From: Coleofasciculus chthonoplastes F2-STO-03
GTDB lineage: Bacteria; Cyanobacteriota; Cyanobacteriia; Cyanobacteriales; Coleofasciculaceae
Assembly (NCBI GenBank): GCA_040222015.1
Contig: JAVJWO010000047.1
Location: forward strand, 64,001-128,000
Length of the DNA stretch: 64,000 nucleotides
Direction: 5' to 3'
This document shows positions 8,493 through 48,750 of the stretch, one piece after another. Made by a program: the position numbers and the translations under genes. The first letter of the stretch is position 1; each line of letters starts with the position of its first letter. The notes under the pieces were generated by a model. The model worked only from the letters and a program-made list of their open reading frames with translations, was not told where the DNA came from and did not search any database.

Positions 8493-8693
8493 ATGGAACC
8501 CACAGAAGAAGTTTTTTTTCAAGTTCAGGAACTCAAGGAAGCGATTCAGGAACTTAAAGAGCAGATCAAAGCAATGCAATCGATAAATGAGGTGCAGCAA
8601 GAGTCAATTACGTCTTTAATTGCTCTGTCTCAGAAGCAAACGACGGTGATTGAGCAGCAAACCTCTGTGATTCAGCAATTGGTGAGTCAGTAA
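8493..8693 (+). CDS. Small coiled-coil protein
   Basis: Starts 3 nt after the upstream stop with AAGG in front; heptad Q/E-rich pattern. Confidence 0.6.
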   Translation: MEPTEEVFFQVQELKEAIQELKEQIKAMQSINEVQQESITSLIALSQKQTTVIEQQTSVIQQLVSQ

Positions 8694-8720
8694 GGGAAAG
8701 ATACAGCAGCACGTTCGTAG

Positions 8721-8739
8721 TCAGCACGAAGCGTGCTGA
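8721..8739. terminator. Hairpin between convergent genes
   Basis: TCAGCACG-AAG-CGTGCTGA. Confidence 0.45.
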
Positions 8740-8755
8740 TAAATAGGGTCTATCA

Positions 8756-11380
8756 TTAATGCAATACTCTGACCAGCTCCTTAATTTTGGCAGACTGCCG
8801 ATCCTTGAATTGATCAGGGAAACTTAATTCTAGCGCGATTTTATTCGGCGAAGAACTACTGCTATCCCCCGGAACCAGAATTTCTAATGAGAGAATTTGG
8901 GTTAAAAATCGCTCCCGTGATTGGCTAATGGCGTCTTGACTTAACAGCAAGCCCACTAAGGGTTTTTCTTGCTGCATTTTCTTTAAATTATCAGGCTTAA
9001 GTAATTTAGCATTCGATGTAATAGAATCATCGAGTTCTAATCGCAAACTTGTCGCCCCAATTGCGGTCACTGTTGCCAAATAAAAGTCTCCTTCCCAAAA
9101 CAATTGAGCTGAAGCTTGAACCCGTTTGCGGACTTTTACTGCCCCTTTATCCACCTTAAATTCCTGGAAAGCACGGAAAAGACCTGTAGCCAAAAATCCT
9201 AAAGACTGCAACGGTTTATCCACATATTCCCGTGTTTGTGAATACCATTCCTTCACGTCGGAATACGTCACTAAGGTTAAATTATCTCGCTGGGATTGGG
9301 TGACATTAATAAACTTAACCGCCAATTCCATTTGATGCTCATTGACCGACTTTGCCACCACAATCTGAGCCTCCATAATCACCCTTGCCCCATAATCACC
9401 CACCAATTCAACTTCGATTTCATCGGGTAAATTGGGTTGACCTTCGACTTCTAAGATCATTCGAGTTCCGGTTTCCGAAACATCCAGCGTCACGCCACTC
9501 CAACTTTTGTCATAGCTGTAAATTGTTGCCCCCAGCCGTCGCCGTAAGCGGTGGGCGGTGCGTTCTTGGGGTTGTTCAAAGGCAACCAGTAATGCTGCCA
9601 TTAACAGAGTTAAGTTAAAAACACACCACAAGGCGTTAACCAAAACTGCCTCTGTATCCTCTGGACGTAGGATCAACCAAAAAGGAACAGACGCTAATCC
9701 TAACACCACCAAACCGGTTATACTTAACAAACCCCGTACAGATTGCCAATCAAAATTGGAGAAGCTAAATTCCCGTTTAATCAGGGTCATGTCTTTGTCC
9801 GTGACGTTAAAAGAACCCAGATTGGGATTAATTAACGCCATTGTCGTCACATACCCCGCCTGGAATGCCATGACAAATTCAAAAATTTCATTCCAGAAAG
9901 AAAAGCGCACATGCTTATACGTAATGTAGTTGGTATTAAGGGATAAGAGAATATGAGGAAGTGCATAAGCCAAGGTTTCCAATCCCAAACCCTGAATCGG
10001 GTTGATTCTAAACAATAAGAATAGGGTTGGCGCGATCGCATAAATCAGTCGGGGATAACCGTAGAAGAAGTGAGATGTGGCGCTGAAATAACAAATCCGC
10101 TGGGGAATCGTCAAGTTTAGCTTACGGTTTAACACTGGATTTTCAATCCGCAAAATCTGCGCCATACCCCGCGCCCATCGGACTTGCTGACCCACATAAG
10201 AGGAAAAGTTCTCTGGGGCGAGACCCGCAATCATGATTTTATCGTAGTAAAATGACTTGTATCCCAGAGAATGCAATCGGAATGCAGTATGACAATCTTC
10301 AGTTACGGTTTCGGTAGCAATCCCACCCACTTGTAGGGCATATTCTTTGCGAATGACTGCCGCTGAACCACAGAAGAATGCCGCATTCCAAAAGTCATTT
10401 CCTTTTTGGAGGACTTTATAAAATAACTCATTACCAACTGGAATCCTGCCATCTGTACGCAGGTTCCGTTCAAAAGGATCGGGATTAAAAAACCAGTGGG
10501 GGGTTTGCACAAAAGCCAGTTTTGGATCAAAAAAGAAGCCCGCTACGTGTTTAAGGAAATCTCGGACAGGAATATGATCACAGTCAAGAATCATGACCAA
10601 ATCCCCTTTGGTGCGACGAAACGCGGTATTAATATTCCCCGCCTTGGCATGTTCGTTATTATCCCGCGTCATCATCGTGCAGCCAACTTCTTCGCACATT
10701 TTTCGTAATTTTTCGCGACGGGCTTTATATTTCTCGGCTCGACCATCATCTAAAACATAAACCTTTTTTTTGTCTTCCGGATAGTCAATTGCAATGGCTC
10801 CAATTGCCGTTTTGCGGACAATTTCGACATCTTCGTTATAGGTGGGAATATAGATATCGACCTTGGGCCACTGGTCTTGAGGATATGCCGACAAATCGAC
10901 CGGTTCACGGTCTTGAATATGCAAGGTTTGAAAATAAGCTAGGACTAGGGTGAGGATGGCATAGAGTTCAGCGATCAACAGCAATACACAAAATAAGCCA
11001 TTGATAAAGGCATCAAAGTTGAGCGTGTAGTTGAGGCGATAGTAAAGATATCGAGATGTGGTGACTAAACTTAACCACACTAAAAAGAGGTGATAGTACT
11101 CACTAATTTGTTGATCATTAACCCGGTTTTCCGCTCGCACAACCACTTGCCCGATCGCCAAAACAAAAAAAGCGACAACCCCTTGCTGCCAAACCTTGAG
11201 TGGGGTAATCACTAGGGGAATCGAAATCACCAGTAGAAATAGAACCAGCCATTTTAAATGACTGATACCAATGCGTTCCAATGTACGGTCAAAAAACCGA
11301 GGCAGAACATCAACTAGCCAGTCAGTGGCAAAAGGGCGTCGGGGACGAAATCGCTGGAATTTAGATGAAAATGAGGACAT
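8756..11380 (-). CDS. bcsA: Cellulose synthase catalytic subunit (GT2 plus PilZ)
   Basis: DDG, HAKAGN, DCDH, FFCGS, TED and QQVRW motifs; PilZ motifs RTAHR and DVSETG; multiple TM helices. Confidence 0.93.
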   Translation of the reverse strand: MSSFSSKFQRFRPRRPFATDWLVDVLPRFFDRTLERIGISHLKWLVLFLLVISIPLVITPLKVWQQGVVAFFVLAIGQVVVRAENRVNDQQISEYYHLFLVWLSLVTTSRYLYYRLNYTLNFDAFINGLFCVLLLIAELYAILTLVLAYFQTLHIQDREPVDLSAYPQDQWPKVDIYIPTYNEDVEIVRKTAIGAIAIDYPEDKKKVYVLDDGRAEKYKARREKLRKMCEEVGCTMMTRDNNEHAKAGNINTAFRRTKGDLVMILDCDHIPVRDFLKHVAGFFFDPKLAFVQTPHWFFNPDPFERNLRTDGRIPVGNELFYKVLQKGNDFWNAAFFCGSAAVIRKEYALQVGGIATETVTEDCHTAFRLHSLGYKSFYYDKIMIAGLAPENFSSYVGQQVRWARGMAQILRIENPVLNRKLNLTIPQRICYFSATSHFFYGYPRLIYAIAPTLFLLFRINPIQGLGLETLAYALPHILLSLNTNYITYKHVRFSFWNEIFEFVMAFQAGYVTTMALINPNLGSFNVTDKDMTLIKREFSFSNFDWQSVRGLLSITGLVVLGLASVPFWLILRPEDTEAVLVNALWCVFNLTLLMAALLVAFEQPQERTAHRLRRRLGATIYSYDKSWSGVTLDVSETGTRMILEVEGQPNLPDEIEVELVGDYGARVIMEAQIVVAKSVNEHQMELAVKFINVTQSQRDNLTLVTYSDVKEWYSQTREYVDKPLQSLGFLATGLFRAFQEFKVDKGAVKVRKRVQASAQLFWEGDFYLATVTAIGATSLRLELDDSITSNAKLLKPDNLKKMQQEKPLVGLLLSQDAISQSRERFLTQILSLEILVPGDSSSSSPNKIALELSFPDQFKDRQSAKIKELVRVLH

Positions 11381-18403: not shown

Positions 18404-21400
18404 TCAATCGATAGGAATCACATCAAATTCAGTTTTCAAGCGCACACCGACATCGGTTTCGGAGAAGTTATTCCGTTGCTGGATGGTAAATCCTAAACGG
18501 AGATTGGATAAGAATCGGAAATCATAGAATAGTTCTAAAACGTCGGGATCTTCTTCTCCTTGGTTATTCGATAATTCTTGCCCATAGCCTAATCCTAGGC
18601 GATCATTTTGGGTAAATACATCCAAAAAGCTCACACCAAAACTATAGGTCGTCGCCGCTTCGTCAATTTCTCGGTTGATATACCGACCATAGCGACCAAA
18701 GATGCCCATATTCCAATCAGGGATAAAGTATTCAGCATTGAGACCATACGCCTCTTCCCGATCATCTTCTTCCAGTCCCACATTATTGTCCCCGCGTGCG
18801 ATGGAGAAAATTTCGTTAAATCCTGTTTCTGAACCCGCATCGCGATTGGTGGCATAAGTGCCGCGAATAATGCCATTGCCATAACGTAAACCCACTTCAC
18901 CGGCAAATCCATCTAAGGCAAAATCACCAATACTTCCCGATGATGAAAACGCCGCTGCTTTGGCTTCAATAGTGTCGGTCAATGTCCAATTAACCAAGAC
19001 GCCGGGACGAGAAGAAATTCCGGTGGCACTTAAGGCTGGATTGGTTTGAAAAACCGGATTAAAGAAATGGGTGACCCCATCTTTAGCAAAGCTATTGCGA
19101 TCAAAGTAAGACGTTAAATCGAGTTGACCGAGTACAAAGCGCAAATTCGGTAAATCGGTAAACGGAGCGGTAGAAAAATAGAGTTCATTAATGTTTAATC
19201 CCTGGTTGGGAGAATCAGCTAAACCACTATCTTCGCTAGTTAAATCTAACGTGGCAGCAAATAGCGCTTTCGGAGTTAGAGGATAGACACCAGCCAACCG
19301 CGCCCGCGCCACAGAAGAGTCGCCCTGTACCACATAGCTTCCTTGGAATGCTAAGGAAGGATCTCGTAAGGCTGTGCTGCGTAGTAGAGAGGAGGATGGA
19401 TTGGACTGAGGTCGTCTTAATGTTGGCGGAGGACTGGGAATGGGGGGAGGTAATGTTGGGTTAGCTGTACCGGGTACAACGACTGGATTGGGTGATCCGA
19501 AAGGAGACTGTGCCACTGTATTCATCCCATTGGACGGATTGACCGTGGGATTAACCATTGGAGGTAGTGCGGCTTGGGTTTGCGGCTGGACATAAACCTG
19601 TCCTGTCGCCGGATTATAACCGTTAAAATTTGGTGAATTTGGGTTAATTGGTGCAGGTAAAACGGCTTGGTTTTGCGGTAAATAGGAAACCTGTCCGCTA
19701 CCCGGATTATAACCGTTAAAATTTTGGGGATTTGGATTAATCGGTGCAGGTAAAACGGCTTGGTTTTGAGGTAAGTAGGAAACCTGTCCGCCACCCGGAT
19801 TATAACCGTTAAAATTTGGTGAATTTGGATTAATTGGTGCAGGTAAAACGGCTTGGTTTTGCGGTAAATAGGAAACCTGTCCGCTACCCGAATTATAACC
19901 GTTAAAATTTTGGGGATTTGGATTAATCGGTGCAGGTAAAACGGCTTGGTTTTGAGGTAAGTAGGAAAACTGTCCGCCACCAGGATTATAGGGATTAAAC
20001 CCAACTGGAATCTGAGTCGGTACCGTTAAGCCAACTTGGGACATTTGGGGAATGTAAGCAACCTGCCCCCCGCCCACGTTATAAGGATTTCCCCCCATGG
20101 GAACTCCCATGGGTTGTACTGGCACAAGGATAAAGGTTTGAGGCAAATAAGGAACTTGTCCTCCCCCTGGGTTGTAGGGATTACCCCCTAGAGGCATTCC
20201 CATGGTTTGGACAGGAACTAAGATTACGGTTTGAGGCAGATAAGGGACTTGTCCCCCTGGATTGTAAGGATTGACTCCTCCAGGAAAACCCTGAGTTGAC
20301 ACAGGAATAAAGTTAGGAGTGGGGACAATATAAGAGGGTTGTCCTCCCGGTTGGTTGTAGGGATTGACACCTGCTGTCCCAGCACCGGGCATAGGGATAA
20401 GATTAGGCGTTTGGGTGACAAAAGAAGAGGATTGTCCCCCAGGTTGGTTGTAAAGATTATTACCCATAGCCGCCCCCGCATTGGGCATGGGGATAACCGT
20501 AGGCGTTTGGGTTCCAGACAGGGACTGTCCCCAGGTTGGGGTGTAGGAGTTAGGACTCATCGCCGCCCCAGTACCGGCCGTAGGGATAGTATTAGGTGTT
20601 TGAGTAAACGAAGAGGGCTGTCCCCAAGTTTGGGTGTAGGGATTCACGCCCTGGGGTTGAACATTCGGTGAAACAACCGTGGGAAAGGCGGGAAGCTGTC
20701 TTGAGTTAGATCCCGTAGAACCCAGAGGAATCGAGTTTGTCGGTACAGGGAGGGGAGATGAATTTTGGAACAGAGTTGGAAGCTGCGCCACCTTCACCTC
20801 GAAGGTATCCCTAAACCGGACTGAGGTTTCAGTGGTAAGGGGTTGGTTACAGGGGGTTGAATCGTGACAATTGTGATCAGAGGAAAATTCGGGAATAAAC
20901 GGTTCTTCCTCAATAGCTAAGGGTTGGTGAGCAGAGTTTAAAGCTAGTTCTAATAAACCCGACTGAGTTGATAGACTAGCTTGAATCGGGGGATTGGGGA
21001 TGGGGGAAGCAATACGGTTGGAATACGCTCTAGTTTCTACGTCTTCTGTTCTCCCTGTTCCGCTATCTTTTGCCCTATCGATGGAGGCGGGATTATTGTC
21101 GTTATTTTGTCGTTCCTCGTGTCTGGCTGGAACGGTTTGGTCAAGGGTTTCATCAATTTTCGCCGCAATAGCATTAGGTTCAAGGGCTACGACTGAAGGG
21201 TTAGAATTCAGGCTTGTCGAGCCAGCAGTATCTCGTCTTGAGACATGCTCCACCCTTTGGGCAGAAACGGGCGCTGGATCTGGATGTTGGTTTAGCTCAG
21301 AACCAGGTTTATGCAAGCGATCGGCTTGATTCAGAGATAATTGGAAATCACCGGACGGTTTTTCTTGTCCAATATCTTGTTGATTGGCGACTTCTGAGTC

Positions 21401-21580
21401 AGGTAGAGTCGCCTGAGCGGGTTTAATTTCAAGTAATCCTAGCGTCCAGAAAACGATAAGTGATCCAATACTAAGCAGATTAATCCATAGCAGCGGCTTA
21501 AGCAAGCCGAATCGTTGAGAATCAGGGACTATTAAGTTCATTACCGGAGTTGGTTTGACCGATTGATGTTTGCCCTGCAC
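18404..21580 (-). CDS. Outer-membrane carbohydrate-porin-like (OprB-type) beta-barrel with a very long P/Q/N/G-rich N-terminal region
   Basis: C-terminal GQLDLTSYFDRNSFA, GIFGRYG, DRLGLGYG, ELFYDF and GVRLKTEF strands; low-complexity N-terminus; start codon uncertain. Confidence 0.7.
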   Translation of the reverse strand: MQGKHQSVKPTPVMNLIVPDSQRFGLLKPLLWINLLSIGSLIVFWTLGLLEIKPAQATLPDSEVANQQDIGQEKPSGDFQLSLNQADRLHKPGSELNQHPDPAPVSAQRVEHVSRRDTAGSTSLNSNPSVVALEPNAIAAKIDETLDQTVPARHEERQNNDNNPASIDRAKDSGTGRTEDVETRAYSNRIASPIPNPPIQASLSTQSGLLELALNSAHQPLAIEEEPFIPEFSSDHNCHDSTPCNQPLTTETSVRFRDTFEVKVAQLPTLFQNSSPLPVPTNSIPLGSTGSNSRQLPAFPTVVSPNVQPQGVNPYTQTWGQPSSFTQTPNTIPTAGTGAAMSPNSYTPTWGQSLSGTQTPTVIPMPNAGAAMGNNLYNQPGGQSSSFVTQTPNLIPMPGAGTAGVNPYNQPGGQPSYIVPTPNFIPVSTQGFPGGVNPYNPGGQVPYLPQTVILVPVQTMGMPLGGNPYNPGGGQVPYLPQTFILVPVQPMGVPMGGNPYNVGGGQVAYIPQMSQVGLTVPTQIPVGFNPYNPGGGQFSYLPQNQAVLPAPINPNPQNFNGYNSGSGQVSYLPQNQAVLPAPINPNSPNFNGYNPGGGQVSYLPQNQAVLPAPINPNPQNFNGYNPGSGQVSYLPQNQAVLPAPINPNSPNFNGYNPATGQVYVQPQTQAALPPMVNPTVNPSNGMNTVAQSPFGSPNPVVVPGTANPTLPPPIPSPPPTLRRPQSNPSSSLLRSTALRDPSLAFQGSYVVQGDSSVARARLAGVYPLTPKALFAATLDLTSEDSGLADSPNQGLNINELYFSTAPFTDLPNLRFVLGQLDLTSYFDRNSFAKDGVTHFFNPVFQTNPALSATGISSRPGVLVNWTLTDTIEAKAAAFSSSGSIGDFALDGFAGEVGLRYGNGIIRGTYATNRDAGSETGFNEIFSIARGDNNVGLEEDDREEAYGLNAEYFIPDWNMGIFGRYGRYINREIDEAATTYSFGVSFLDVFTQNDRLGLGYGQELSNNQGEEDPDVLELFYDFRFLSNLRLGFTIQQRNNFSETDVGVRLKTEFDVIPID
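19611..19990 (-). repeat. Coding tandem repeat, four units of 93 bp (31 aa)
   Basis: GGATTATA-like anchor recurs at 19611, 19704, 19797, 19890 and 19983. Confidence 0.92.
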
Positions 21581-22748: not shown

Positions 22749-23348
22749 GTGGTCTTTGCTCAAACCAGTTCCCCAGATGTAGGAACAACTCGCCTCACGC
22801 TAGACGAGTATCGGGCGATGGAAGAAACCCACCCGGAACGTCATGAATACCGCAACGGAGAGATTATTACAATGTCGGGAGGTTCTGAAGCCCATAGTGC
22901 GATCGCTAGCAACTTATTAATTTACTTGGGGTTTTTGCTCAGAGATACCGATTTTCGTTTGTATAACAGCGACTTGCGAGTTTGGATTCCTGAATATCAG
23001 TGTGGGACTTATACTGATTTGATGGTGGTTAATGGCTTCCCAGAGTTCAATGGTGAGCGCAATGATGAAATTCTCAATCCTTTCCTGATTGTCGAAGTTC
23101 TATCGCCTTCTACGGAAGCCTATGATCGAGGTGAAAAGTTCAGAAAATATCGTTCTCTTGCTAGTTTTTGTGAATATCTGCTGGTGAGCCAAGCTGAACC
23201 CTACATTGAGCAGTATCATAATCTTGAGCCTAGCAGTAATGATCGCTGGCTGTGGCAAGTGTACTCTAACCTTGAGCAGGTGATCGTCCTGCACAGTTTA
23301 AACATAGAAGTTCCCCTGTCTGAAATCTATCGTCGCATTAATTTTTAA
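22749..23348 (+). CDS. Uma2 family (DUF820) endonuclease-like protein
   Basis: RHEYRNGEIITMSGGS, YTDLMVV, IVEVLSPST, DRGEKF and EYLLVSQ motifs. Confidence 0.92.
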   Translation: MVFAQTSSPDVGTTRLTLDEYRAMEETHPERHEYRNGEIITMSGGSEAHSAIASNLLIYLGFLLRDTDFRLYNSDLRVWIPEYQCGTYTDLMVVNGFPEFNGERNDEILNPFLIVEVLSPSTEAYDRGEKFRKYRSLASFCEYLLVSQAEPYIEQYHNLEPSSNDRWLWQVYSNLEQVIVLHSLNIEVPLSEIYRRINF

Positions 23349-23580: not shown

Positions 23581-24948
23581 TTAACGCCCAACTCCGACAT
23601 AGCGGAACCCAGCGTCTTCTAGCACGTTAGGATCGAGAAAGTTACGACCATCAATAAGCACGGCATTATGCATCAGCTTCGCCATCTTGCCATAATCCAG
23701 ACTCTGGAATTGTTCCCAGTCGGTGACTAATACCAAAGCGTCACAGCCATCTGCCAAGCGATCGGGATCACCTTCCACCTGCACACCAGATATACCGTGA
23801 CTCATCCCACTCGATGAAATAATCGGATCATAAGCCTTGACTTTTGCGCCCAACCGATTGAGATTTTCAATCAGAATCAATGCGGGAGCATCGCGCATAT
23901 CATCCGTATCCGGCTTAAAGGTTAATCCCAACAATCCTACTGTTTTACCTTTGAGGATTTTAAGTTCTTGCTGGAGTTTTTCCACAGCAATTAAGCGCTG
24001 ACGATGATTGACACTCACCGCTGCTTTCAACAGTTGAGCATCGAACCCATAATCATCCGCCGTATGAATCAACGCCGAGACATCCTTCGGAAAACAGGAA
24101 CCGCCCCAACCAATCCCAGCTTGCAGGAATTTACCACCAATGCGAGTATCTAAACCAATGCCTTGGGCGACTTGAGTCACATCCGCGCCCACGCGATCGC
24201 AGATATTGGCGATTTCGTTAATGAAGCTAATTTTGGTGGCTAAAAAGGAATTGGAGGCATATTTCACCATTTCCGCTGAACTCAAATCCGTCACCACTAC
24301 CGGAACCGGGGGTAGGGATTTATCTTCAGCAGGTTCACGCTTAACGATTGGCGCATAGAGTTCCTGCATCATGGAAATAGCGCGATCGCTATTACTCCCC
24401 AACACAATGCGATCGGGGTTAAAGGTATCATAAATCGCTGATCCTTCCCGCAAAAACTCCGGATTACTCACCACATCAAACTCAACACTTGTGTCTGACG
24501 TCGTACCTCCAGAGGACTTCTGGTGAGCAGTGACACCATCCATGACAATCATTCGTACCCAATCCCCAGAACCAATGGGCACTGTTGACTTATTCACAAT
24601 CACCTTGTAGCCCCCATTCAGGTGATTGCCGATCCCACGGGCTACGGCTTCCACATAGCGAGTATCACTTTCACCATTGGGTAATGCTGGCGTTCCCACC
24701 GCAATAAACAGAATTTCGCCATGAGCGACACCCCTCGCCAAATCCGAGGTAAACTCCAAACTGCCCGCATTACTGCAAGCTTGCATCAGTTCCGATAGTC
24801 CCGGCTCATAGATGGGCGACTGTCCTGATTTCATTAATTTGACTTTTTCTTCATTGTTATCCACACAGATAACATGGTGTCCGATATGGGCTAAGCACAC
24901 CCCGGTTACTAAGCCAACATATCCAGTACCAATAACACAAACGCGCAT
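23581..24948 (-). CDS. ugd: UDP-glucose 6-dehydrogenase
   Basis: GTGYVGL, KSTVPIG, NPEFLREG, GGSCFPKD and FKPDTDDMRDAP motifs. Confidence 0.95.
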   Translation of the reverse strand: MRVCVIGTGYVGLVTGVCLAHIGHHVICVDNNEEKVKLMKSGQSPIYEPGLSELMQACSNAGSLEFTSDLARGVAHGEILFIAVGTPALPNGESDTRYVEAVARGIGNHLNGGYKVIVNKSTVPIGSGDWVRMIVMDGVTAHQKSSGGTTSDTSVEFDVVSNPEFLREGSAIYDTFNPDRIVLGSNSDRAISMMQELYAPIVKREPAEDKSLPPVPVVVTDLSSAEMVKYASNSFLATKISFINEIANICDRVGADVTQVAQGIGLDTRIGGKFLQAGIGWGGSCFPKDVSALIHTADDYGFDAQLLKAAVSVNHRQRLIAVEKLQQELKILKGKTVGLLGLTFKPDTDDMRDAPALILIENLNRLGAKVKAYDPIISSSGMSHGISGVQVEGDPDRLADGCDALVLVTDWEQFQSLDYGKMAKLMHNAVLIDGRNFLDPNVLEDAGFRYVGVGR

Positions 24949-25075: not shown

Positions 25076-27004
25076 TCAGCCGTTAAGCGATCGCGCGCGG
25101 AAATCCTCAACAGTCGTTTTTAACCCCTCCTGTAAAGGTATAGTCGGTTGCCAACCCAATAACGTCTTCGCTTTCGTAATATCCGGACGGCGACGTTGCG
25201 GGTCATCTTGCGGTAAATCCTGAAAGATAATTTCTGAATCCGGATTCACCATATTTTGCACCGCCTGCGCCAATTGTAAAATCGTATACTCATCCGGATT
25301 CCCCAGATTAATCGGTCCGGTATGCTCATTATTCATCAACCGAATTAATCCTTCTACTAAATCCGATACATAACAGAAACTGCGCGTTTGTGAACCCTTA
25401 CCATACACCGTTAACGATTCACCTTTAAGCGCTTGCACCACAAAATTACTTACAACTCGCCCATCATTTTCCAGCATCCGAGAGCCGTAGGTATTAAAAA
25501 TACGAGCCACCCGAATGTCCACACCGTTTTGCAGATGGTAATCAAACGCCAACGTTTCCGCCACTCGTTTCCCCTCGTCGTAACAGTTCCCGCAAAACGC
25601 GACTCGTCCATGGCGACGCACACACACCACATGATTCTGCACATTAACGCAGTAAACATTGCCAGCATATCGAAATGGCTCTGGGGTGACTAAATGAGCG
25701 TCTTTTATCGGTCGAATATTCACCCGATATAAATCACGACCTACAGCATGAGACACAACAGACGCCGCATAACCGCAACGCATGGCTAACTCTTGGACAT
25801 CATCAGCCAGTTGTTTTGATTTCGTGTAATAAACATAGCCATCTCCGCGCTGGGAATCATCTCCCATCATCAGCGCCTTAAACAAAATCAGCGACTGACG
25901 CTTGGATAATGATAAAAACTGGCGCGGAATATATTTATCACCCGACTTACCTAGAGGGAGTAAAATTTCTGCCAGTTGTTTACTACAAATCCTGAATTGG
26001 TGGTCATCCGATGAGAAAAACTTAAAGCCGAGGTTGGTTAAACAGTGGGTGATTTTGGCTCGACCTTCTGGATTTTCTTGAGCAATCAGGATGTTATAAT
26101 CAGCTACCTCATAGTCACGTCCACCAACAACCCGCCCTCGTCGTCGGACATGAACGCAGCCTTCAGAAATGTAGTAACCGAGGAATTCCAACCAATCATC
26201 CATCCGAATTCGCTCGATGCTAACCTTCGCGTTTTTCGGTGCAGTTTCCAGTTCAAACCATTCTGGTTCTTCTCCCTGAAACTCACCCCCAGTAGGGACA
26301 CGCCAAGAATGCCAATGTCGGTCTTCATCCGCACGCAAAAATTGCAATTTTCCGGTTTTACTGCGTACATACATCCAGTGATTTGGCGTTACACACAGAT
26401 CGAATTTAGCATTGGCAAACCGGAGCAAATTACCCACGTAAGGCTGCACAATATACTCGTCCGGGACGTGATACTCGACTTGATTATCGGGATTAAGAGT
26501 CGCCACTCGCACCCCTGGCTGTAATTGGGGAAAAGGAACCCAGCCATTTTCCGTTAAAATTTCAGTTTCAGCGTCGTAACAACTGCGGGGTCCAATTGGA
26601 TTAACATTTCCTCGGTATTCTTCGGGTTGAGGATGAACTTCCGGATCACCATACACTTCCGAGGTTGAAGCTAATAAAAATCTCGCCCCTACCCGCTTGG
26701 CTAACCCCAACATATAGAGGGTACCCATAACATTGGTTTTAATCGTCTTGACAGGATTGTACTGATAGTGTATTGGCGAAGCCGGACAAGCCAGATGATA
26801 AATTTGGTCAACCTCGACGCGAATCGGTTCGGTAATATCGTGGCGGATCAGTTCAAAGTAGGGATGATTCAGCCATTTGACGATATTTCGCTTGGTGCCA
26901 GTATAGAAGTTATCCAGACAGAGAACTTCATGACCTGCTTCCATTAACCGATCAACGAGATGGGAACCAATAAAACCAGCACCACCTGTAACTAGAATTC
27001 TCAT
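25076..27004 (-). CDS. UDP-glucuronate decarboxylase (UDP-xylose synthase), interrupted by an intein
   Basis: GGAGFIGS, HLACPASP, ASTSEVYGDP, RS|CYDEGKR and DGRVVSNF; removing the 332-aa insert leaves a 310-aa SDR of normal length. Confidence 0.93.
   Translation of the reverse strand: MRILVTGGAGFIGSHLVDRLMEAGHEVLCLDNFYTGTKRNIVKWLNHPYFELIRHDITEPIRVEVDQIYHLACPASPIHYQYNPVKTIKTNVMGTLYMLGLAKRVGARFLLASTSEVYGDPEVHPQPEEYRGNVNPIGPRSCYDAETEILTENGWVPFPQLQPGVRVATLNPDNQVEYHVPDEYIVQPYVGNLLRFANAKFDLCVTPNHWMYVRSKTGKLQFLRADEDRHWHSWRVPTGGEFQGEEPEWFELETAPKNAKVSIERIRMDDWLEFLGYYISEGCVHVRRRGRVVGGRDYEVADYNILIAQENPEGRAKITHCLTNLGFKFFSSDDHQFRICSKQLAEILLPLGKSGDKYIPRQFLSLSKRQSLILFKALMMGDDSQRGDGYVYYTKSKQLADDVQELAMRCGYAASVVSHAVGRDLYRVNIRPIKDAHLVTPEPFRYAGNVYCVNVQNHVVCVRRHGRVAFCGNCYDEGKRVAETLAFDYHLQNGVDIRVARIFNTYGSRMLENDGRVVSNFVVQALKGESLTVYGKGSQTRSFCYVSDLVEGLIRLMNNEHTGPINLGNPDEYTILQLAQAVQNMVNPDSEIIFQDLPQDDPQRRRPDITKAKTLLGWQPTIPLQEGLKTTVEDFRARSLNG
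25586..26581 (-). mobile_element. Intein of 332 aa with a LAGLIDADG-type homing endonuclease region
   Basis: Block A CYDAETEILTENGW; block B VTPNH; block C FLGYYISEG; block E ALMMGDD; block H TKSKQLADDVQEL; block F/G VYCVNV...FCGN followed by Cys+1. Confidence 0.92.
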
Positions 27005-27070
27005 AGGTTTTTCCGAATAGAGCGATCGCGTAAGCTTAGTGCGGTAAAGTATCAAGCTCTACCATGTTAC

Positions 27071-28460
27071 AATATAGCGATGGTGAAAGCCTCTGTGCTC
27101 TCTTCCAGGGGATGAAACCGAGTTCGGCGTATAGCCAAGCAACTTTAGTTGCGAGTGTTAATCAGCTTGTACCATAATTCTACTATAAGTTTGACGTGGT
27201 AAAATGATTGTCTACGAGGGCAAACTAAAAGGTAAAGAGTATCAGTATAGACGGCTTGATGAAGCTATCCGTACTGGCTTGTTTATCCGTAATGCTTGCC
27301 TTCGCTATTGGGAGGATGGTCATGCTAAGAGCCGGAATGATTTCTCTAAATACTGCACAGTACTTGGGCATTGCCAAAAATTTCCGTGGGCGAGAAAGCT
27401 AAACTCACAAGCCCGACAAGCTATGTCTGAGCGCACCTGGGCTAGTATTAGCCGATTCTTTGATAACTGCAAAAAGAAAATTCCCGGCAAGAAGGGCTAC
27501 CCCAAATACAAAAAAAACCGTCCTAATCACGGTTCCGTGGAGTACAAAACATCCGGATGGAAACTATCAGAGAATCGCGACCAGATCACATTCACTGACG
27601 GTTTTCAAGCCGGAACGTTTAAGCTATATGGGACTCGTGACCTAAACTACTACCAACTTGGGTCAATCAAGAGGGTTAGGATAGTTCGCCGCGCCGATGG
27701 TTATTATGTTCAGTTTTGTATAGACCATGACAGAACTGAAGATAGGGAGCCAAAGGGCAATACTGTAGGATTAGATGTTGGGTTAAACCACTTCTATACC
27801 GACTCAAACGGTCAAACGGTTGATAATCCGAGATTTTTGAGGAAGTCAGAAAGGCAACTAAAACGTCTCCAGAAGCGGGTATCTAGGAAGTTTAAGAAGG
27901 GTCAACCCCAGTCCAATAACTACAAGAAGGCTAAACAGAGGTTAGCCAAGAAGCACTTAAAAGTCAGCAGGCAACGTAAAGACTTTGCAGTTAAGACGGC
28001 ATTGTGCGTAGTCCGGTCTAACGACTTGGTAGCCTACGAGGACTTGCAAGTGCGGAATATGGTCAAGAATCATCATCTGGCTAAATCGATCAGCGACGCA
28101 GCTTGGTCTGAATTTCGTAGATGGCTTGAGTATTTTGGGAGAGTATTTGGTGTGGCGACGGTTGCCGTTAAGCCTCACTACACCTCCCAGAACTGTTCCA
28201 ATTGCGGTTGTGTTGTGAAGAAAACGCTCTCAACGAGAACACACCAGTGTAAATGCGGATGTGTCTTAGACCGTGATTGGAATGCAGCCATCAACATACT
28301 CAAAGAGGCACTTCGTACTGTGGGACACACAGGAACGCTCCAGGATTACTGGATAAACGCTTCGGGACAACTTGCCCTCTGGGGTATTGATGAAAATCAA
28401 TATTCTAAGGTGATTGGATGAACGAAGAATCCCCCGCGTTTTCAACCGGGGGAGTGTCAA
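27071..28460 (+). mobile_element. Non-autonomous IS200/IS605-family (IS1341-like, IS608-type ends) element carrying tnpB only
   Basis: TTAC at 27067-70, AAAG at +16..+19, then the left hairpin; GAAT, right hairpin CCCCC...GGGGG and terminal TCAA ending at 28460; no tnpA. Confidence 0.8.
27204..28421 (+). CDS. tnpB: RNA-guided endonuclease TnpB
   Basis: RuvC-I GLDVG, RuvC-II AYEDL, Zn finger CSNC...CKC, RuvC-III DRDWNAAINI. Confidence 0.95.
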   Translation: MIVYEGKLKGKEYQYRRLDEAIRTGLFIRNACLRYWEDGHAKSRNDFSKYCTVLGHCQKFPWARKLNSQARQAMSERTWASISRFFDNCKKKIPGKKGYPKYKKNRPNHGSVEYKTSGWKLSENRDQITFTDGFQAGTFKLYGTRDLNYYQLGSIKRVRIVRRADGYYVQFCIDHDRTEDREPKGNTVGLDVGLNHFYTDSNGQTVDNPRFLRKSERQLKRLQKRVSRKFKKGQPQSNNYKKAKQRLAKKHLKVSRQRKDFAVKTALCVVRSNDLVAYEDLQVRNMVKNHHLAKSISDAAWSEFRRWLEYFGRVFGVATVAVKPHYTSQNCSNCGCVVKKTLSTRTHQCKCGCVLDRDWNAAINILKEALRTVGHTGTLQDYWINASGQLALWGIDENQYSKVIG

Positions 28461-28869: not shown

Positions 28870-31008
28870 ATGTTGCTAGAGACTTTAAACTCACCAGAGT
28901 CTGTCCTCGCTCAAATGGATACATTTAGTACCGGGAAGTTAGAACTGTGGTTTCAGCCCGTTTATCAAACAGCGACGGGTGCTGTATTACACAATGAAAT
29001 ACTTCTGCGTTGGCGAGACGAAGCCGGAAATCTGCACTTACCCCAGGAATTCTTACCCACGTTGTCGGATACCGGACAACTGCAAAAGACTGATCGCGCC
29101 GTTATCCGTAAGGCAATAGAACTCTTAGCGGAACAGCCGGATCGATGCCTGTCGATTAATCTTTCGGGAGAGGGATTAAATAACTTTGAACTGATCGAAT
29201 ATATTGAAACACTTCTGGATCAGTCAGGAGTTGACCCGAAGCAACTGAGTTTTGAGCTAACCGAATCAACCATCGCCAAAGATTTTCCCACAATTCGGGC
29301 ATTTGTCCGCGAACTCAAAAGTCTCGGTTGTGCGATCGTTCTGGATAACTTTGCCAGTCGCGAATTAACATTGTTTCAATGTCAACAACTGGCGGTTGAT
29401 CTGGTTAAAGTTGATGGTCAACTCATCCAACGCTTAAAAACAGAACCGAGTAGTCGTGTCTTAACCAAAGCCATTCTCGAAGGCATTCAGGCGCTGAGTC
29501 AGGTGGCGGCTAAATTTGTCAGCGATGCGGTTACCCTCTCACTGGTGGAAGAAGTCGGGATTGATTTAGTCCAAGGACACCATCTTAAAACCCCTAGTCC
29601 AGCACCCGATTGGACGGAACTGGTTCGCCCAGAGGAGGAACAGGATTCACCCACGGCTGAAGTCCAAAAATCTACTCAATCCTGGCGTTTCCTGGTGGGA
29701 ACTGGGTTTGTGGTGCTGGGATTAGGGGCAGTTGGTGTGGGGATTGCCTCCATTGGCTATCGCCTCAGTCACTTAGTTGTAGACGGTAGCACGATTAACG
29801 GGCGAATTGTGCGGCTACAAGCGCCAACCACTGGCAATATTCAAGCCTTTTACGCCCAGCCAGGGGTCGTTGTGAAATCAGGACAACTTCTCGCCCGGAT
29901 TAGCCAAGAACCCAGTCCCCAAGAACAAGAAGCCCTACTCCGCCTAGAACGCGCCCAAGACCAAGAACAAATCCGCAATCAGCTTGAAAGTCTCGAATTA
30001 CAAGGGCAGATTCAGGTGAATGCAACTCAGCTAGCATCGGCAAAACAGTCCCTAGCATTACTGAAAACTCAGTTACAGCAACTTGAACGTCGAGACCAAG
30101 CCGTGCGCCAAGTGGATGTAGAACTGGGCTTAGAGTCGATTAAGGAACAACAAGCCGTGGTTCAAGCAGCACAGGCAAAAGCTGAAGCCGCCCGGTTAGA
30201 TTATCAACGGTATCAAAAGTTATTAGAAGCCGGGGGTGTATCCGCACAGGAAACCGATCAATTGCGCTTACTCTGGCAATCCGCACAAGCCGAAGTTCAG
30301 CAAGCCAAATCTGTCCTAGATGGGACGCAAAAGGCGGTCAATGCTGCCCAAGCGGGTATTGCTCGCAGTAATCGCAATAATATTATGGGCGGGGTTCTGT
30401 CCGATCAACGGATTAGTTTGCAGCAGACGATTCAACAGCAATCGGTGGTGGTGAATACGATGGAAGCTCAATTGGCTAAACTCAAGCAGCAGCTAAATAA
30501 CAGCCAGTCTCTACAAAAAAATGCCCCTTCTCTGGTTAATGATCTCAAACAACTGCAAAGCGAACGGAAAGTGCAAAACGTGTCAGCGCCTTTTGCGGGT
30601 GTTGTCTACACAGCGGAACGAGAACAAGGTGAACAAGTTAATCAGTTAGAACCGATAGTGACGCTACTCGATTGCAATAACCTGTGGGTAGAAACCGTGG
30701 TTAGCGCTGAACAAGCCAGTTCAATTAATACCGATAAACCCGTGACTGTAGGACTAGCAGGTTATGCCCAAACAGTCAAGGGTGAAATTGACTTAATTCA
30801 GCCAATTAGTAATATGCAACAGCTTAATAAGTTGACCCAGGTTCAAGCCCTACAGCCTGCGATTCCGCCTAAATTGGTGGGACAACCGTTGACGCGGATT
30901 ACAGTACAAATTCCACCGCCGCCGCAACATGAGAATTCCCAACAGTTCTGTGGATTGGGACAAGCGGCGAGGCTAACGTTTCCGAAGAAACTTTTTGGTA
31001 ATCGTTGA
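28870..31008 (+). CDS. Degenerate EAL domain, TM helix and HlyD/Alg44-like membrane-fusion domain
   Basis: FQPV, EILLRW, SINLS, FELTE, LDNFAS, VKVDG and QGHH; TM FLVGTGFVVLGLGAVGVGI; APTTG...V.SGQLL, long coiled coil, APFAGVV...LLDC. Confidence 0.82.
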   Translation: MLLETLNSPESVLAQMDTFSTGKLELWFQPVYQTATGAVLHNEILLRWRDEAGNLHLPQEFLPTLSDTGQLQKTDRAVIRKAIELLAEQPDRCLSINLSGEGLNNFELIEYIETLLDQSGVDPKQLSFELTESTIAKDFPTIRAFVRELKSLGCAIVLDNFASRELTLFQCQQLAVDLVKVDGQLIQRLKTEPSSRVLTKAILEGIQALSQVAAKFVSDAVTLSLVEEVGIDLVQGHHLKTPSPAPDWTELVRPEEEQDSPTAEVQKSTQSWRFLVGTGFVVLGLGAVGVGIASIGYRLSHLVVDGSTINGRIVRLQAPTTGNIQAFYAQPGVVVKSGQLLARISQEPSPQEQEALLRLERAQDQEQIRNQLESLELQGQIQVNATQLASAKQSLALLKTQLQQLERRDQAVRQVDVELGLESIKEQQAVVQAAQAKAEAARLDYQRYQKLLEAGGVSAQETDQLRLLWQSAQAEVQQAKSVLDGTQKAVNAAQAGIARSNRNNIMGGVLSDQRISLQQTIQQQSVVVNTMEAQLAKLKQQLNNSQSLQKNAPSLVNDLKQLQSERKVQNVSAPFAGVVYTAEREQGEQVNQLEPIVTLLDCNNLWVETVVSAEQASSINTDKPVTVGLAGYAQTVKGEIDLIQPISNMQQLNKLTQVQALQPAIPPKLVGQPLTRITVQIPPPPQHENSQQFCGLGQAARLTFPKKLFGNR

Positions 31009-31315: not shown

Positions 31316-33409
31316 ATGACTCGACTATTTCGTTGGCAAAATATTTCGTCCTATCTCAATTGGTTCGCCCTGCTGAGTCTTTCCGCCTTCGGTTTTATTG
31401 GCTTTTACTTGCTGCGTAACCCAGAACAATTAGACCTATTAGGCATATCTGGTTTAATTAGTATGGGGCTGATCGGCATTTGGCGATGGTCATGGTGGGC
31501 GCTGCAAGTGATTCGTTCTCGGATTTACCTACACTGGGTTTTTCCCCGGTGGCGCAAACAAGCCGATCGCATCCCCCTTGACAAGTTACCGCCTGTTTGT
31601 TTATTAGTCCCTACCTATAAGGAAAAACCCTGGATCACGGAACGAGTCTTCCGAGTCATCGCCCAAGAAGCCCAAAGCCTCTCTCATCCCCTGACACTGC
31701 TAGTTACCAGTAGCAGTAATGCAGAAAATGCTGCCATTTTAAAGGTACTTAAATCCGTTGATCCGGAACTCAGTTGTATTCGCCTAATCCAAATGGTGCA
31801 GACGGGGGAAGGGAAGCGCAAAGCCATGGCGGATGGATTACGAGAATTAGCGCGTTTAAATCTACCCCAAAATGCCGTTGTTGGTTTAATGGATGGCGAT
31901 TCTGAACTGACGCCTGGAACCTTACGTCGCTGTTTGCCATTTTTTCGCCTATTTCCCAAAATGGGGGCGCTGACAACGGATGAGTTACCGATTGTTGAGG
32001 GATCGTATCTGTTTTCTGAGTGGTTCCATTTACGCCTATCCCAGCGTCATTATCAAATGTGTTCTGTGTCCCTGTCGCAAAAAGTCATGTGTTTGACAGG
32101 ACGCTTTTCCCTATTTCGGGCGGAGGCGGCGCTGCATCCTACATTTGCGGATCAGTTAGAACTGGATACGTTGGATGATTGGTTGTGGGGACAGTTTAAA
32201 TTCCTCTCTGGCGACGATAAAACGACGTGGTATTGGCTACTGCGCCGAGGTTACGATATGCTTTATATCCCCGATGTGATTGTCTATTCCATTGAGACGA
32301 TTTCTGGGTCATTAGTTGATCGCGCTTACCAGAATATGCGCCGTTGGTATGGGAATATGCTGCGGAACAGCGATCGCGCGATCGGCTTGGGTCCGGGTAA
32401 GGCGGGATGGTTTATGTGGTATTGTCTCCTGGATCAACGGATTAGTTACTGGACGACTCTAATCACTCCCGGTTCGTTATCAATTTGTTTAGTTCAAGGA
32501 TATTGGTTAGCCGCTGGACTCATTTTCTGTTGGATTCTTTGTACTCGACCGATCATTTTAACCATCATTTTCTGGGGGCGACAGTCTCGGCTTAAACCGA
32601 TTCATTTACCTGTCTTTTTAATCGCCCAGTGGAGTTCCTGCATTATCAAAATCTGGACTCAGATGAACCTTGCCCAACAAAAGTGGTCGAATCGAGGCAA
32701 TCAAAGTATATCAGCCGCCGGATCGGGGTTGGAACGGTTGGTTAAAGTGAGTGTGTCTCGTTTTCTTTATGTCTCCCAGTTATTTGGCTTTGTGATTATT
32801 TTATGTTGGTTTGCTAGCCTTCTCAGTCCCTTACAAGATGTGGTAGGTTTATGGTCAAACAGTAGCTGGGCGATGAGTCAATCGGTTCCCCCTCAAATTA
32901 TTGAAGCGATTGATCATGGAATTATTCCCAATGATGGTAAAGATGATGCCAAATCCCTCCAGGCGTTAATTAATCGTCTTTCGGGGGAAGACCCGGTTCA
33001 GATTAATTTACCCATTGGTGAAATTGATTTGTTTCATCCCATCGAAATTAATCGCAGTCACACGATTATTAAAGGGCAAGGGATGCGGCGAACGATTTTA
33101 CAAGCGCATATTAGTAAACCCGATACAGAAGCCGTTCTAGTCATGCGACCCCTAATCGAAAAACTGGATTCTCATCAGAATCGGATTCAGGATATACATT
33201 TAAGTGGATTTACACTCCGGAAAAAATCACCCAACTCAACTGAAAATATATCTGCTGTTAGCAGTATCATTTTGGAAAATGTAGTAGGGTCTTCGCTGAG
33301 AAACCTTGATTTAGCAAACAGTAGGAATCGGGCTTTAATCCTGCGTAATACGGAGGATGTAACTGTCGAGTATGTGTTGCCAGAGACAGCAATAAAGAAA
33401 AAGGAATAA
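31316..33409 (+). CDS. Alg8-like processive GT2 polysaccharide synthase with a short C-terminal pectate-lyase-like beta-helix start
   Basis: IGIWRWSW, GKRKAM, MDGDS, LTGRFSLFRA, FLSGDDKTTW and RRWYGNMLR match Alg8; C-terminal GIIPNDGKDDAKSLQALI...IKGQG. Confidence 0.82.
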   Translation: MTRLFRWQNISSYLNWFALLSLSAFGFIGFYLLRNPEQLDLLGISGLISMGLIGIWRWSWWALQVIRSRIYLHWVFPRWRKQADRIPLDKLPPVCLLVPTYKEKPWITERVFRVIAQEAQSLSHPLTLLVTSSSNAENAAILKVLKSVDPELSCIRLIQMVQTGEGKRKAMADGLRELARLNLPQNAVVGLMDGDSELTPGTLRRCLPFFRLFPKMGALTTDELPIVEGSYLFSEWFHLRLSQRHYQMCSVSLSQKVMCLTGRFSLFRAEAALHPTFADQLELDTLDDWLWGQFKFLSGDDKTTWYWLLRRGYDMLYIPDVIVYSIETISGSLVDRAYQNMRRWYGNMLRNSDRAIGLGPGKAGWFMWYCLLDQRISYWTTLITPGSLSICLVQGYWLAAGLIFCWILCTRPIILTIIFWGRQSRLKPIHLPVFLIAQWSSCIIKIWTQMNLAQQKWSNRGNQSISAAGSGLERLVKVSVSRFLYVSQLFGFVIILCWFASLLSPLQDVVGLWSNSSWAMSQSVPPQIIEAIDHGIIPNDGKDDAKSLQALINRLSGEDPVQINLPIGEIDLFHPIEINRSHTIIKGQGMRRTILQAHISKPDTEAVLVMRPLIEKLDSHQNRIQDIHLSGFTLRKKSPNSTENISAVSSIILENVVGSSLRNLDLANSRNRALILRNTEDVTVEYVLPETAIKKKE
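33332..33390 (+). repeat. 59-bp direct repeat A (3' end of the alg8-like gene); second copy at 35864-35922
   Basis: 57 of 59 identical by manual alignment. Confidence 0.92.
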
Positions 33410-34504: not shown

Positions 34505-35107
34505 ATGACGACGCTGCTAATTCAAACCCAAAGTGTCCCCCTGACGGTGAATTTTCCTGCTCTCAAATCGATTAGTGTTGAACAATTCTACGAATTCTGT
34601 CTAGCCAATCGCGATTTGAGAATCGAGCGTACTGCCAGTGGGGAAGTTATTATTATGCCACCAGCCTTTTCAGATACAGGGAATCGCAACATGAAAATTG
34701 CTCAACAAGTTGCGAACTGGGCAGAACAAGATGGTACGGGTGAAGTGTTTGACTCCAGCGCTGGCTTTACCTTACCCAATGGAGCAATCCGCTCCCCTGA
34801 TGGTTCATGGATTAAACTAGAGCGCTGGGATGCCTTAAGTGAGGAACAAAAAGCCTCTTTTGCACCGATTTGTCCAGATTTCGTAATTGAGTTACGTTCT
34901 CAGAGCGATACCCTTAGTGGATTGCGAAACAAAATGCAGGAATATATTGACAATGGTACATTACTCGGCTTGTTGATCGACCGCAAAAACAGAAACGTTT
35001 ATATCTACCGCCCCAATCAAGAACCGGAAATCTTGGAGAATCCTGAAACAGTCAGCGGTGAGCCAGTGCTACCAGGATTTGTCTTGCGGATGGCAAAAAT
35101 TTGGTGA
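34505..35107 (+). CDS. Uma2 family (DUF820) endonuclease-like protein
   Basis: IERTASGEVIIMPP, FDSSAGFTLPNGAIRSPD, CPDFVIELRS and KMQEYIDNG motifs. Confidence 0.93.
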   Translation: MTTLLIQTQSVPLTVNFPALKSISVEQFYEFCLANRDLRIERTASGEVIIMPPAFSDTGNRNMKIAQQVANWAEQDGTGEVFDSSAGFTLPNGAIRSPDGSWIKLERWDALSEEQKASFAPICPDFVIELRSQSDTLSGLRNKMQEYIDNGTLLGLLIDRKNRNVYIYRPNQEPEILENPETVSGEPVLPGFVLRMAKIW

Positions 35108-48149: not shown

Positions 48150-48324
48150 GTAGGGTGCGTTAGGCGCATAGTTTTTTATTCACTTTTATTTCCCACAGAA
48201 CACTCATGCGCCGTAACGCACCACCTTGGTTGGTGTGTTACTAACGCACGATGGCGGACTGACACAGCTAAAATTGTGGAATAGATTTGACGTTTAAACC
48301 GGGCGCAAGTCCTTGCGCCCCTAC
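48150..48324. repeat. Cluster of GTAG-type REP hairpins
   Basis: GTAGGGTGCGTTAGGCGCAT...ATGCGCCGTAACGCACC and GGGCGCAAGTCCTTGCGCCCCTAC. Confidence 0.7.
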
Positions 48325-48750
48325 AATTATAATCCACCAAATAAGGTGTGCTACGCCACTACCCAAATTACAATTAATGAGGCTTTTTACTCGCGATATC
48401 TTGACATTAATAATTTATAAATAAGGCATAAGATAGAAGAGAAAGATTGGCAAATGTAAACCCGCGCAGGCGGGTTTTGTTTGTGTAGCTGCGGTTTCTA
48501 ACCGCCCAGCTAAATTGTTGTGGGGAATTTTTTATGATCACTTCGGTTAGGGCGCACGTCCGTGCTACGGGATTGTGGTATTGTTATCCTCATTAACGGA
48601 ATTGCGATCGCGAAGATGGGAAATCCCTTCCGGATGGCAAAACCTATAAGGATGTAATGCTGGTGGGCAATGCCCACCCTACGGTATATCAAGGGTTTTG
48701 GCGAGCGGAACATGCAGAAGGCGAGCGTGCCATTCAACTTAAAATCCAGA

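Follow-up and report, generated by a model that had tools for sequence, protein, structure and literature searches.

A predicted class 1 intein with a nested LAGLIDADG endonuclease in the sole UDP-glucuronate decarboxylase gene of Coleofasciculus chthonoplastes F2-STO-03

The interrupted UDP-glucuronate decarboxylase gene

The stretch analyzed here (hereafter the window) covers 64,000 nucleotides of the genome of the cyanobacterium C. chthonoplastes F2-STO-03 (contig JAVJWO010000047.1), and all coordinates below refer to it. On its minus strand lies a gene for a UDP-glucuronate decarboxylase (UXS) whose coding sequence is split by an insert of 332 amino acids (aa). This insert is very probably a class 1 intein that has a LAGLIDADG homing endonuclease nested in it, and it is orthologous to a mobile allele that has been sequenced before and probably catalogued as well. 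The open frame spans 25076..27055, its upstream limit being the TTG at 27055, and the likely start is the ATG at 27004, which gives a precursor of 642 aa (25076..27004).

The two exteins, identified by their Pfam and human UXS1 matches, correspond to precursor residues 1-141 and 474-642 and together make up an extended short-chain dehydrogenase (SDR). The N-extein (26582..27004, minus strand, 141 aa) carries the NAD-binding motif GGAGFIGSH (GxxGxxG) and the active-site Thr/Glu in STSEVYG (TSE motif), and it ends in ...NPIGPRS. The C-extein (25076..25585, minus strand, 169 aa plus the stop codon) starts with Cys+1 (25583-25585), directly followed by the catalytic YDEGK of the YxxxK motif (25568-25582). 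The Pfam matches to Epimerase and GDP_Man_Dehyd are each cut in two by the insert. When compared with the human UXS1 chain 4gll, the N-extein matches residues 7-146 (E 2.3e-68) and the C-extein residues 147-310 (E 2.4e-67). The exteins thus abut exactly on the human enzyme, indicating that the insert has neither removed nor duplicated a host residue. Because these E-values are far ahead of those of the next-best PDB families (1e-21 to 1e-27 or weaker), we assign the host as a UDP-glucuronate decarboxylase, with a predicted activity converting UDP-glucuronate into UDP-xylose. Public records name the homologues of this enzyme variably, as GDP-mannose 4,6-dehydratase, dTDP-glucose 4,6-dehydratase, or NAD-dependent epimerase.

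This is the sole UXS gene of a 99.99%-complete genome, the other SDR matches being at most 38% identical. With a single copy present, an active UXS, and hence the UDP-xylose that derives from it, should require splicing. Without splicing, the precursor would very probably be inactive, since the insertion lies between STSEVYG, with its active-site Thr/Glu, and YDEGK, with its Tyr/Lys. For annotation purposes, the 642-aa product should therefore be described as a UXS precursor with one intein, and not as a novel fusion protein.

Anatomy and predicted fold of the intein

The intein (25586..26581, minus strand, precursor residues 142-473) runs from Cys1 to a terminal Cys-Gly-Asn and is inserted between Ser141 and Cys+1 (...NPIGPRS / CYDEGKR), one residue ahead of the catalytic Tyr of YxxxK. 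A first-pass annotation of the window, made from the letters alone, had proposed an intein lacking the penultimate His at this very place. Its coordinates were exact, all the motifs it claimed are present (Cys1, TxxH, LAGLIDADG-like blocks, terminal Gly-Asn, a Cys at F4, and Cys+1), and motifs, homologues, and fold all support the identification.

The N-terminal part of the HINT domain (26246..26581, minus strand, intein residues 1-112) contains Cys1 of block A (26579-26581) and the TPNH of block B (26378-26389, residues 65-68). It is followed by the LAGLIDADG homing-endonuclease domain (25709..26245, minus strand, residues 113-291), in which we recognized block C, MDDWLEFLGYYISEG (26159-26203, residues 127-141), and block E, LILFKALMMGDDS (25853-25891, residues 231-243). 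Both LAGLIDADG helices end in an acidic residue, Glu140 in block C and Asp241 in block E, and a catalytic role is described for the acidic residues of these blocks (PMC8966425). Residue 242, directly after Asp241, is an Asp in place of Gly. The C-terminal part of the HINT domain (25586..25708, minus strand, residues 292-332) comprises Cys311 of block F (25649-25651), within VYCVNV (VYC at 309-311), and Cys330-Gly331-Asn332 of block G (25586-25594), after which come Cys+1 and YDEGK. The boundaries between the HINT and endonuclease domains were drawn from the secondary structure of the predicted model and are approximate. Among Pfam families, LAGLIDADG_3 matches the insert above the cut-off (E 1.1e-6).

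We built an AlphaFold2 model of the intein from an alignment of 34 homologues (mean predicted local distance difference test score 91.9, predicted template modeling score 0.90). Its full length (residues 1-332) superposes on the TliVMA intein (7qsu) with a Z score of 26.9 (root-mean-square deviation [rmsd] 3.9, 302 residues aligned), and other full-length overlays were obtained with PI-TkoII (2cw7, Z 26.7), PI-SceI (Z ~21.5), and PI-PfuI (Z 21.4). Across the split HINT domain the model matches mini-inteins, among them 6zgq (Z 20.2, with 143 residues aligned at rmsd 1.8) and 7oec (Z 17.6). Foldseek gave matches to I-DmoI with template modeling scores of 0.59-0.65 (normalized to the target).

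Base composition does not set the intein apart: its G+C fraction is 0.465 against 0.458 in the exteins, with no step in the profile, and we rejected the idea that it is compositionally foreign. The first 10 nucleotides of the intein (26572-26581) and of the C-extein (25583-25592) are identical on the minus strand (TGTTACGACG), both encoding Cys-Tyr-Asp. We considered whether this microhomology is a special feature of the UXS site and discarded the idea, because relatives in unrelated hosts also begin with CYD and the match looks coincidental. As a direct repeat, it could nevertheless permit a precise deletion that would leave an intein-free gene.

Conservation and splicing class

The alignment of 34 homologues, which consists of inteins at the UXS and MCM sites, shows no variation at C1, T65, H68, C311, C330, or G331 and at least 90% conservation of E140 and D241. 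To represent the wider family, we searched 1.84 billion representative proteins with a profile, obtained 5,538 matches at E 1e-30 or better, and aligned 244 near-full-length domains taken from 147 of the top 150. In these, Cys1 is found in 235/244, Thr65 in 240/244, and His68 in all 244. The F:4 position is Cys in 222 domains and Asp in 11, the penultimate residue is Gly in 211 and His in only two, and the terminal residue is Asn in 214. Position 330 is more variable (Cys in 85/244, Ser in 83, Thr in 27). Likewise, the TxxH block and the F:4 Cys are each present in 119 of the best 120 database homologues described below. Judging from these alignments, the F:4 Cys and the absence of a penultimate His are hallmarks of a very large intein family and not signs of decay.

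The hosts of the wider family include NrdD, RNA polymerase Rpb2/Rpb1, family B DNA polymerase, MCM, D12 methyltransferase, phage portal proteins, and group 1 glycosyltransferases, as well as, judged by their flanks only, proteins resembling radical-SAM enzymes and papain-type proteases. Some very long proteins of up to 3,760 aa, among them RNA polymerase and NrdD, hold several inteins with the F:4 Cys and a ...[C/S]GN end in the same chain, and such inteins are found in phage portal proteins too.

The insert has the N-terminal Cys nucleophile, the TxxH block, the terminal Asn followed by Cys+1, and the HINT fold of a class 1 intein; the penultimate His is replaced by Gly331. For a phage intein of class 1 whose penultimate residue is Gly, complete splicing has been reported, and a change of this Gly to His slowed the reaction (Kelley et al., 2016, PMC5050341). 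The lack of this His is thus no sign of a defect and does not exclude the intein from class 1. Class 3 inteins are described as having no N-terminal nucleophile and a Trp-Cys-Thr set at positions B12, F4, and G5 (PMC2807308; PMC5050341). Here, using the block numbering of PMC5050341, Cys1 is invariant, B12 is Met70 (counted from TPNH), F4 is Cys311, and G5 is Cys330. Since Cys1 is kept, with Met at B12 and Cys at G5, we placed the element in class 1, noting its F:4 Cys as unusual. On these sequence features, it is probably splicing-competent.

Distribution of the allele

With the intein alone as the query, 779 of 3,529 candidate proteins matched at E 0.001 or better. In the best 120 of these 779, identity is never below 69% across 100% of the intein, and every host is UXS-like. 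Both junctions are as here in 118 of them, and the other two match at the N-terminal junction only. Among 118 readable homologues, the C-terminal end is CGN in 96, CGQ in 21, and CAN in one. With hundreds of full-length homologues of the insert at the same site, a chance pattern is excluded.

We confirmed 71 loci on contigs from one genome per species: 59 are UXS genes, in every one of which the intein occupies this insertion site, and 12 are archaeal MCM copies with 34-38% identity. Among Cyanobacteria, the carriers are five Coleofasciculus metagenome-assembled genomes (MAGs; 96-98% identity), Trichodesmium erythraeum IMS101 (67%), and members of Okeania, Prochloron, Planktothrix, Microcoleus, Phormidium, Limnothrix, and Halomicronema. 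Outside this phylum, we found it in Pyrinomonadaceae and other Acidobacteriota (72-80%), in MAGs of Myxococcota/'Deltaproteobacteria' (~70%), and in Methanosarcinales (41-44%). A special jump from MCM to UXS was considered, MCM being the host of the nearest non-UXS relatives in the genome collection, and rejected, as the 5,538 profile matches sit in many hosts of which MCM is just one.

At a finer scale, we surveyed 52 genomes of the family, including that of F2-STO-03 itself (G000) and one unpublished genome (G005). Within the genus, seven of nine species carry the intein. The other two congeners (G017 and G020) have an empty site in an uninterrupted UXS frame of 327 and 338 aa, respectively, reading ...NPIGPRSCYDEGKR..., and so provide the intein-less alleles that the first-pass annotation had suggested looking for in close strains. 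In all 43 genomes of the family's other 23 genera, the intein part was unmatched; one of these, the 77%-complete G006, lacked any match to UXS as well. Sampling the phylum evenly, we found the intein in 9/401 cyanobacterial genomes (G000 included), belonging to nine of the 156 genera sampled. In a sample of 41 genomes from an acidobacterial family (unpublished G468 and G483 included), it was present in two, while 37 gave extein-only UXS matches.

The allele is not new, having already been sequenced many times. The first-pass annotation had itself pointed out that finding it catalogued and widespread would lower its novelty, and this is what the homologue searches and the phylum survey revealed.

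A second, canonical intein (Ser1 ... His-Asn | Thr, ~424-464 aa) is present in the UXS of many relatives, at RIFN|TYGP. It was detected in 15 of the 59 UXS-hosted loci (for example in the C-exteins of L012, L030, L040, L041, L054, L056, and L065), and 28 of 118 database homologues have the length expected for two inteins. One genome from the family of F2-STO-03 (G038, locus L080) carries the second intein only. All four states thus occur (none, first only, second only, and both), and the gene studied here has the first only.

Two homologues showed stop codons. In a Spirulina sp. MAG (L024), a single internal stop codon lies in an otherwise 77%-identical intein, which could be a dying copy or an assembly error. 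In a Myxococcota MAG (G450, locus L038), the six-frame match to an intein-bearing UXS contained one TAG, and the locus-based frame had none within the intein.

Intein and host phylogenies

The intein and its host gene have different histories. In the extein tree, 24 acidobacterial exteins form one clade (support 98), in which six sequences with and 18 without the intein are interleaved, and 41 cyanobacterial exteins fall in another (support 98). In the intein tree, by contrast, acidobacterial and myxococcal inteins nest within the cyanobacterial ones, and the F2-STO-03 copy falls among those of Coleofasciculus inside a bacterial UXS intein clade. Relative to this copy, acidobacterial inteins are 74-80% identical and their exteins 68-70%, and myxococcal inteins are 69-71% identical and their exteins 60-67%, even though the exteins are much more constrained. 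Exteins that sort by phylum, inteins that nest across phyla, and inteins that are more similar than their exteins together show that the intein alone was transferred, and not the whole gene.

Within the genus, the empty sites of the two congeners are nearly identical to the flanks of occupied ones (the occupied L011 shows one difference within ~36 nt either side) and therefore look like available targets. Pairwise ratios of nonsynonymous to synonymous substitution rates (dN/dS) among six Coleofasciculus copies lay between 0.04 and 0.11 in the exteins, between 0.01 and 0.10 in the splicing domain, and between 0.04 and 0.26 in the endonuclease domain; no ratio was obtained for L007/L008, whose inteins are identical. 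By these values, the endonuclease domain is not drifting neutrally.

The sporadic spread, the empty alleles in congeners, the occurrence across phyla, and the purifying selection on the endonuclease all fit a selfish homing element. The case is a clean example of such behavior, with a single homing allele spread over Cyanobacteriota, Acidobacteriota, Myxococcota, and Methanosarcinales and a host gene that keeps to its phylum. Moreover, the occupied and empty alleles within one genus offer a natural system in which to study the homing cycle outside of replication genes.

Genomic neighborhood and other inteins of the genome

Directly downstream of UXS and on the same strand lies a UDP-glucose 6-dehydrogenase gene (23581..24948, minus strand; three UDPG_MGDP_dh domains, E 2.4e-66 to 3.8e-30), whose product makes the UXS substrate UDP-glucuronate. 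By their predicted functions, the two genes fit a pair leading from UDP-glucose via UDP-glucuronate to UDP-xylose. On the other side, 200 nt upstream of UXS and divergent from it, is a TnpB-type gene (27204-28421, plus strand, 405 aa) with OrfB_IS605 and Cas12f1-like TNB domains. Also on the plus strand, a gene for a protein with an EAL domain and HlyD-type membrane-fusion domains (28870-31008) is followed by a gene for a family 2 glycosyltransferase (31316-33409, 697 aa). From their domains, the latter two look like a cyclic di-GMP-linked pair for polysaccharide synthesis and export close to the UDP-sugar genes. Two genes encode putative restriction endonucleases of the Uma2 family (22749-23348, plus strand, E 2.2e-28; 34505-35107, plus strand, E 8.2e-43), and a 1058-aa open frame (18404-21580, minus strand) has no Pfam match at E 1e-5 or better.

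Elsewhere in the same genome, three long frames of 1117, 1327, and 1418 aa match both Intein_splicing and LAGLIDADG_3 (contigs C22, ~48179-49105; C158, ~26555-28177; and C126, ~8611-10833), pointing to several further inteins. The UXS intein itself was absent from the results of this six-frame Pfam search of its own genome with LAGLIDADG_3, although hmmscan on the protein placed it above the cut-off; we attribute this to the limited sensitivity of the search filter.

Discussion

We propose that the UXS precursor is translated as a single 642-aa chain in which Cys1 would form an N-terminal thioester, aided by Thr65 and His68. Cys+1 would then take over the N-extein, and cyclization of Asn332 would allow the exteins to be joined into a normal UXS of ~310 aa, its ...IGPRS-CYDEGK... 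active site unbroken. On DNA, the endonuclease would cut intein-free alleles at this very conserved site, and repair would copy the intein in. Homing at such a site would explain the patchy spread of the allele in cyanobacteria and into other phyla. Most likely, the intein is a selfish element with no demonstrated regulatory role.

Several observations weigh against this interpretation. The Pfam Hint_2 match to the insert is weak and below the cut-off, and a PDB sequence search with the intein gave no match at E 1 or better, so that the identification rests on motifs, homologues, and the predicted fold. We found neither protein-level evidence of splicing nor a cleavage assay in the literature for this intein or its orthologues. 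The polymorphisms next to the junctions do not sort by intein presence and leave no co-conversion footprint: this copy differs from the empty alleles by three synonymous changes in the first 18 nt of the C-extein, but once five more occupied alleles were included, the differences proved to be either private to this copy or common to both classes, and we rejected such a footprint. Finally, the conserved Gly that follows the second catalytic Asp is lost. Block E reads GDG in 106 of the best 120 homologues and in the five closest Coleofasciculus copies, and the column of residue 242 is Gly in 231/244 wider-family domains and Asp in two. The GDD found here occurs in only one of 69 locus and window inteins and in none of the 120 database homologues. 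The endonuclease of this one copy may therefore be impaired or weakened.

This last point leads to the alternative that deserves the most attention, a copy that still splices but no longer homes, Gly242 having changed to Asp beside Asp241 and inactivated the endonuclease, which would place it in the decay phase of the homing cycle, with the intein persisting only because precise loss is rare. The rarity of GDD speaks for it, as does the genus occupancy of 7/9, a stage at which a general model would expect decay (PMC8966425). Conversely, both acidic catalytic residues are kept, dN/dS of the endonuclease domain is 0.04-0.10 in the comparisons that involve this copy, and the GDD might be a sequencing error. 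We consider this alternative possible but less likely than not. The first-pass suggestion that the second endonuclease motif may be decayed (GDDS for GDG) is accordingly borne out insofar as the substitution is real and private to this genome; decay itself is a possibility only, given that Glu140 and Asp241 are retained. A departure from the textbook class 1 pathway is an unlikely alternative, whether Cys311 acts as a nucleophile in a class 3-like branched intermediate or substitutes for the F:4 Asp to activate Cys+1. The F:4 Cys is nearly universal in the family, where Asp is rare, and it co-occurs with a penultimate Gly and hardly ever with His; class 3-like chemistry, however, sits poorly with the invariant Cys1, the Met at B12, and the Cys at G5, which all differ from the class 3 definition. 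That the intein has stopped splicing altogether and turned the UXS gene into a pseudogene is barely credible. Nothing specific favors it beyond the internal stop codon of the Spirulina relative, whereas here the reading frame is unbroken, every splicing residue is in place, exteins and intein are under strong purifying selection, and the gene is the only UXS of a practically complete genome.

A further alternative takes up the idea, raised in the first-pass annotation, that splicing could act as a redox or salt switch on the composition of the extracellular polysaccharides (EPS), which we regard as speculation. In its redox form, Cys1, Cys311 (F:4), Cys330 (G:5), and Cys+1 would form reversible disulfides under oxidative or other stress, pausing splicing and throttling UDP-xylose supply and thereby EPS composition. 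The absence of any other UXS in the genome, the adjoining UDP-glucose dehydrogenase gene, and the invariance of Cys1, Cys311, and Cys330 among the 34 aligned inteins are in line with this view, and there is a precedent in the DnaBi1 intein of Mycobacterium smegmatis, reversibly inhibited by oxidation via an intramolecular disulfide of its catalytic Cys (PMC6195587). Yet the congeners with empty sites and most relatives make their UXS without an intein, so that no lineage-wide need is visible, and the intein moves between phyla independently of its host gene. Position 330 is Cys in about a third of the wider family, whose members share the F:4 Cys as a hallmark across many unrelated hosts, indicating that these cysteines are not an adaptation to UXS. 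None of our results speaks for a conditional switch in particular, and on balance we think it improbable. Even a little less probable is its extension, in which the Cys-rich center lacking a penultimate His has become a reversible thiol switch that gates UDP-xylose and the xylose of sheath and EPS, and thus a domesticated regulator where the intein is near fixation, as in the seven of nine species of this genus. If true, it would represent post-translational redox gating in mat-forming cyanobacteria whose only UXS carries an intein. The locus opens no long-standing question, and the regulatory idea would matter only if splicing proves to be condition-dependent. We thus retain the class 1 intein with a nested homing endonuclease as the best explanation.

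Comparison with known systems

Inteins in nucleotide-sugar enzymes have been catalogued before. The supplement of the survey by Novikova et al. (2016, PMC4760082) contains the entry 'WcaG, 8 inteins, COG0451 (M), Cyanobacteria', along with inteins in GMD, RfbB, and Ugd. Superfamily and phylum are the same as here, and identity with the present allele is likely, this part of the table giving neither site nor species; the allele has thus probably been counted in that survey. The first-pass view that a nucleotide-sugar SDR is an unusual intein host holds in the sense that such enzymes are outside the top-15 intein hosts, but they are a catalogued host nonetheless. In the literature we found no text on an intein in UXS (hits for 'UDP-glucuron...' were judged by title and the start of the abstract): a match for 'intein' together with 'UDP-xylose' cites only an unrelated engineered xylanase, and the Arthrospira genome paper reports other inteins only.

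In T. erythraeum IMS101 (NC_008312.1, L056), the UXS-type NAD-dependent epimerase/dehydratase holds two inteins, and the first of them is the closest described counterpart. It occupies the same site of the same enzyme (...IGIRS|C...CG[N/Q]|CYDEGKR), is 67-68% identical over its whole length, and shares the blocks, the F:4 Cys, and the penultimate Gly. It differs in having a terminal Gln instead of Asn and GDN in block E, and its host gene also bears the second Ser1...His-Asn|Thr intein at RIFN|TYGP, which the UXS gene of F2-STO-03 lacks. We take this pair to be the one named 'Ter Ndse-1/-2' in InBase; the name 'Ndse' in connection with an intein was not found in the literature searched.

Relatives in other hosts (the MCM helicase of Methanoculleus and other archaea, NrdD, Rpb2/Rpb1, and others) give full-length matches with profile E-values down to 1e-188 and share the start CY[D/S]xxTE[I/V]LT, the F:4 Cys, and the ...[C/S]GN end, while differing in insertion site; the MCM copies are 34-36% identical to the present intein. 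By its published description, the intein of mycobacteriophage Bethlehem gp51 (RDF) is comparable in being a class 1 intein with Cys1, a penultimate Gly, an endonuclease, and complete splicing, in another host and at another site (PMC5050341). In terms of structure, the best parallels are TliVMA (7qsu/7qss), PI-TkoII (2cw7), PI-PfuI (1dq3), and PI-SceI (1vde). These archaeal and yeast inteins have other hosts and insertion sites, share only 9-20% sequence identity with the UXS intein, and are larger, with extra DNA-recognition regions, yet they have the same architecture of a HINT domain split by a double-LAGLIDADG endonuclease, with full-length Z scores of 21-27.

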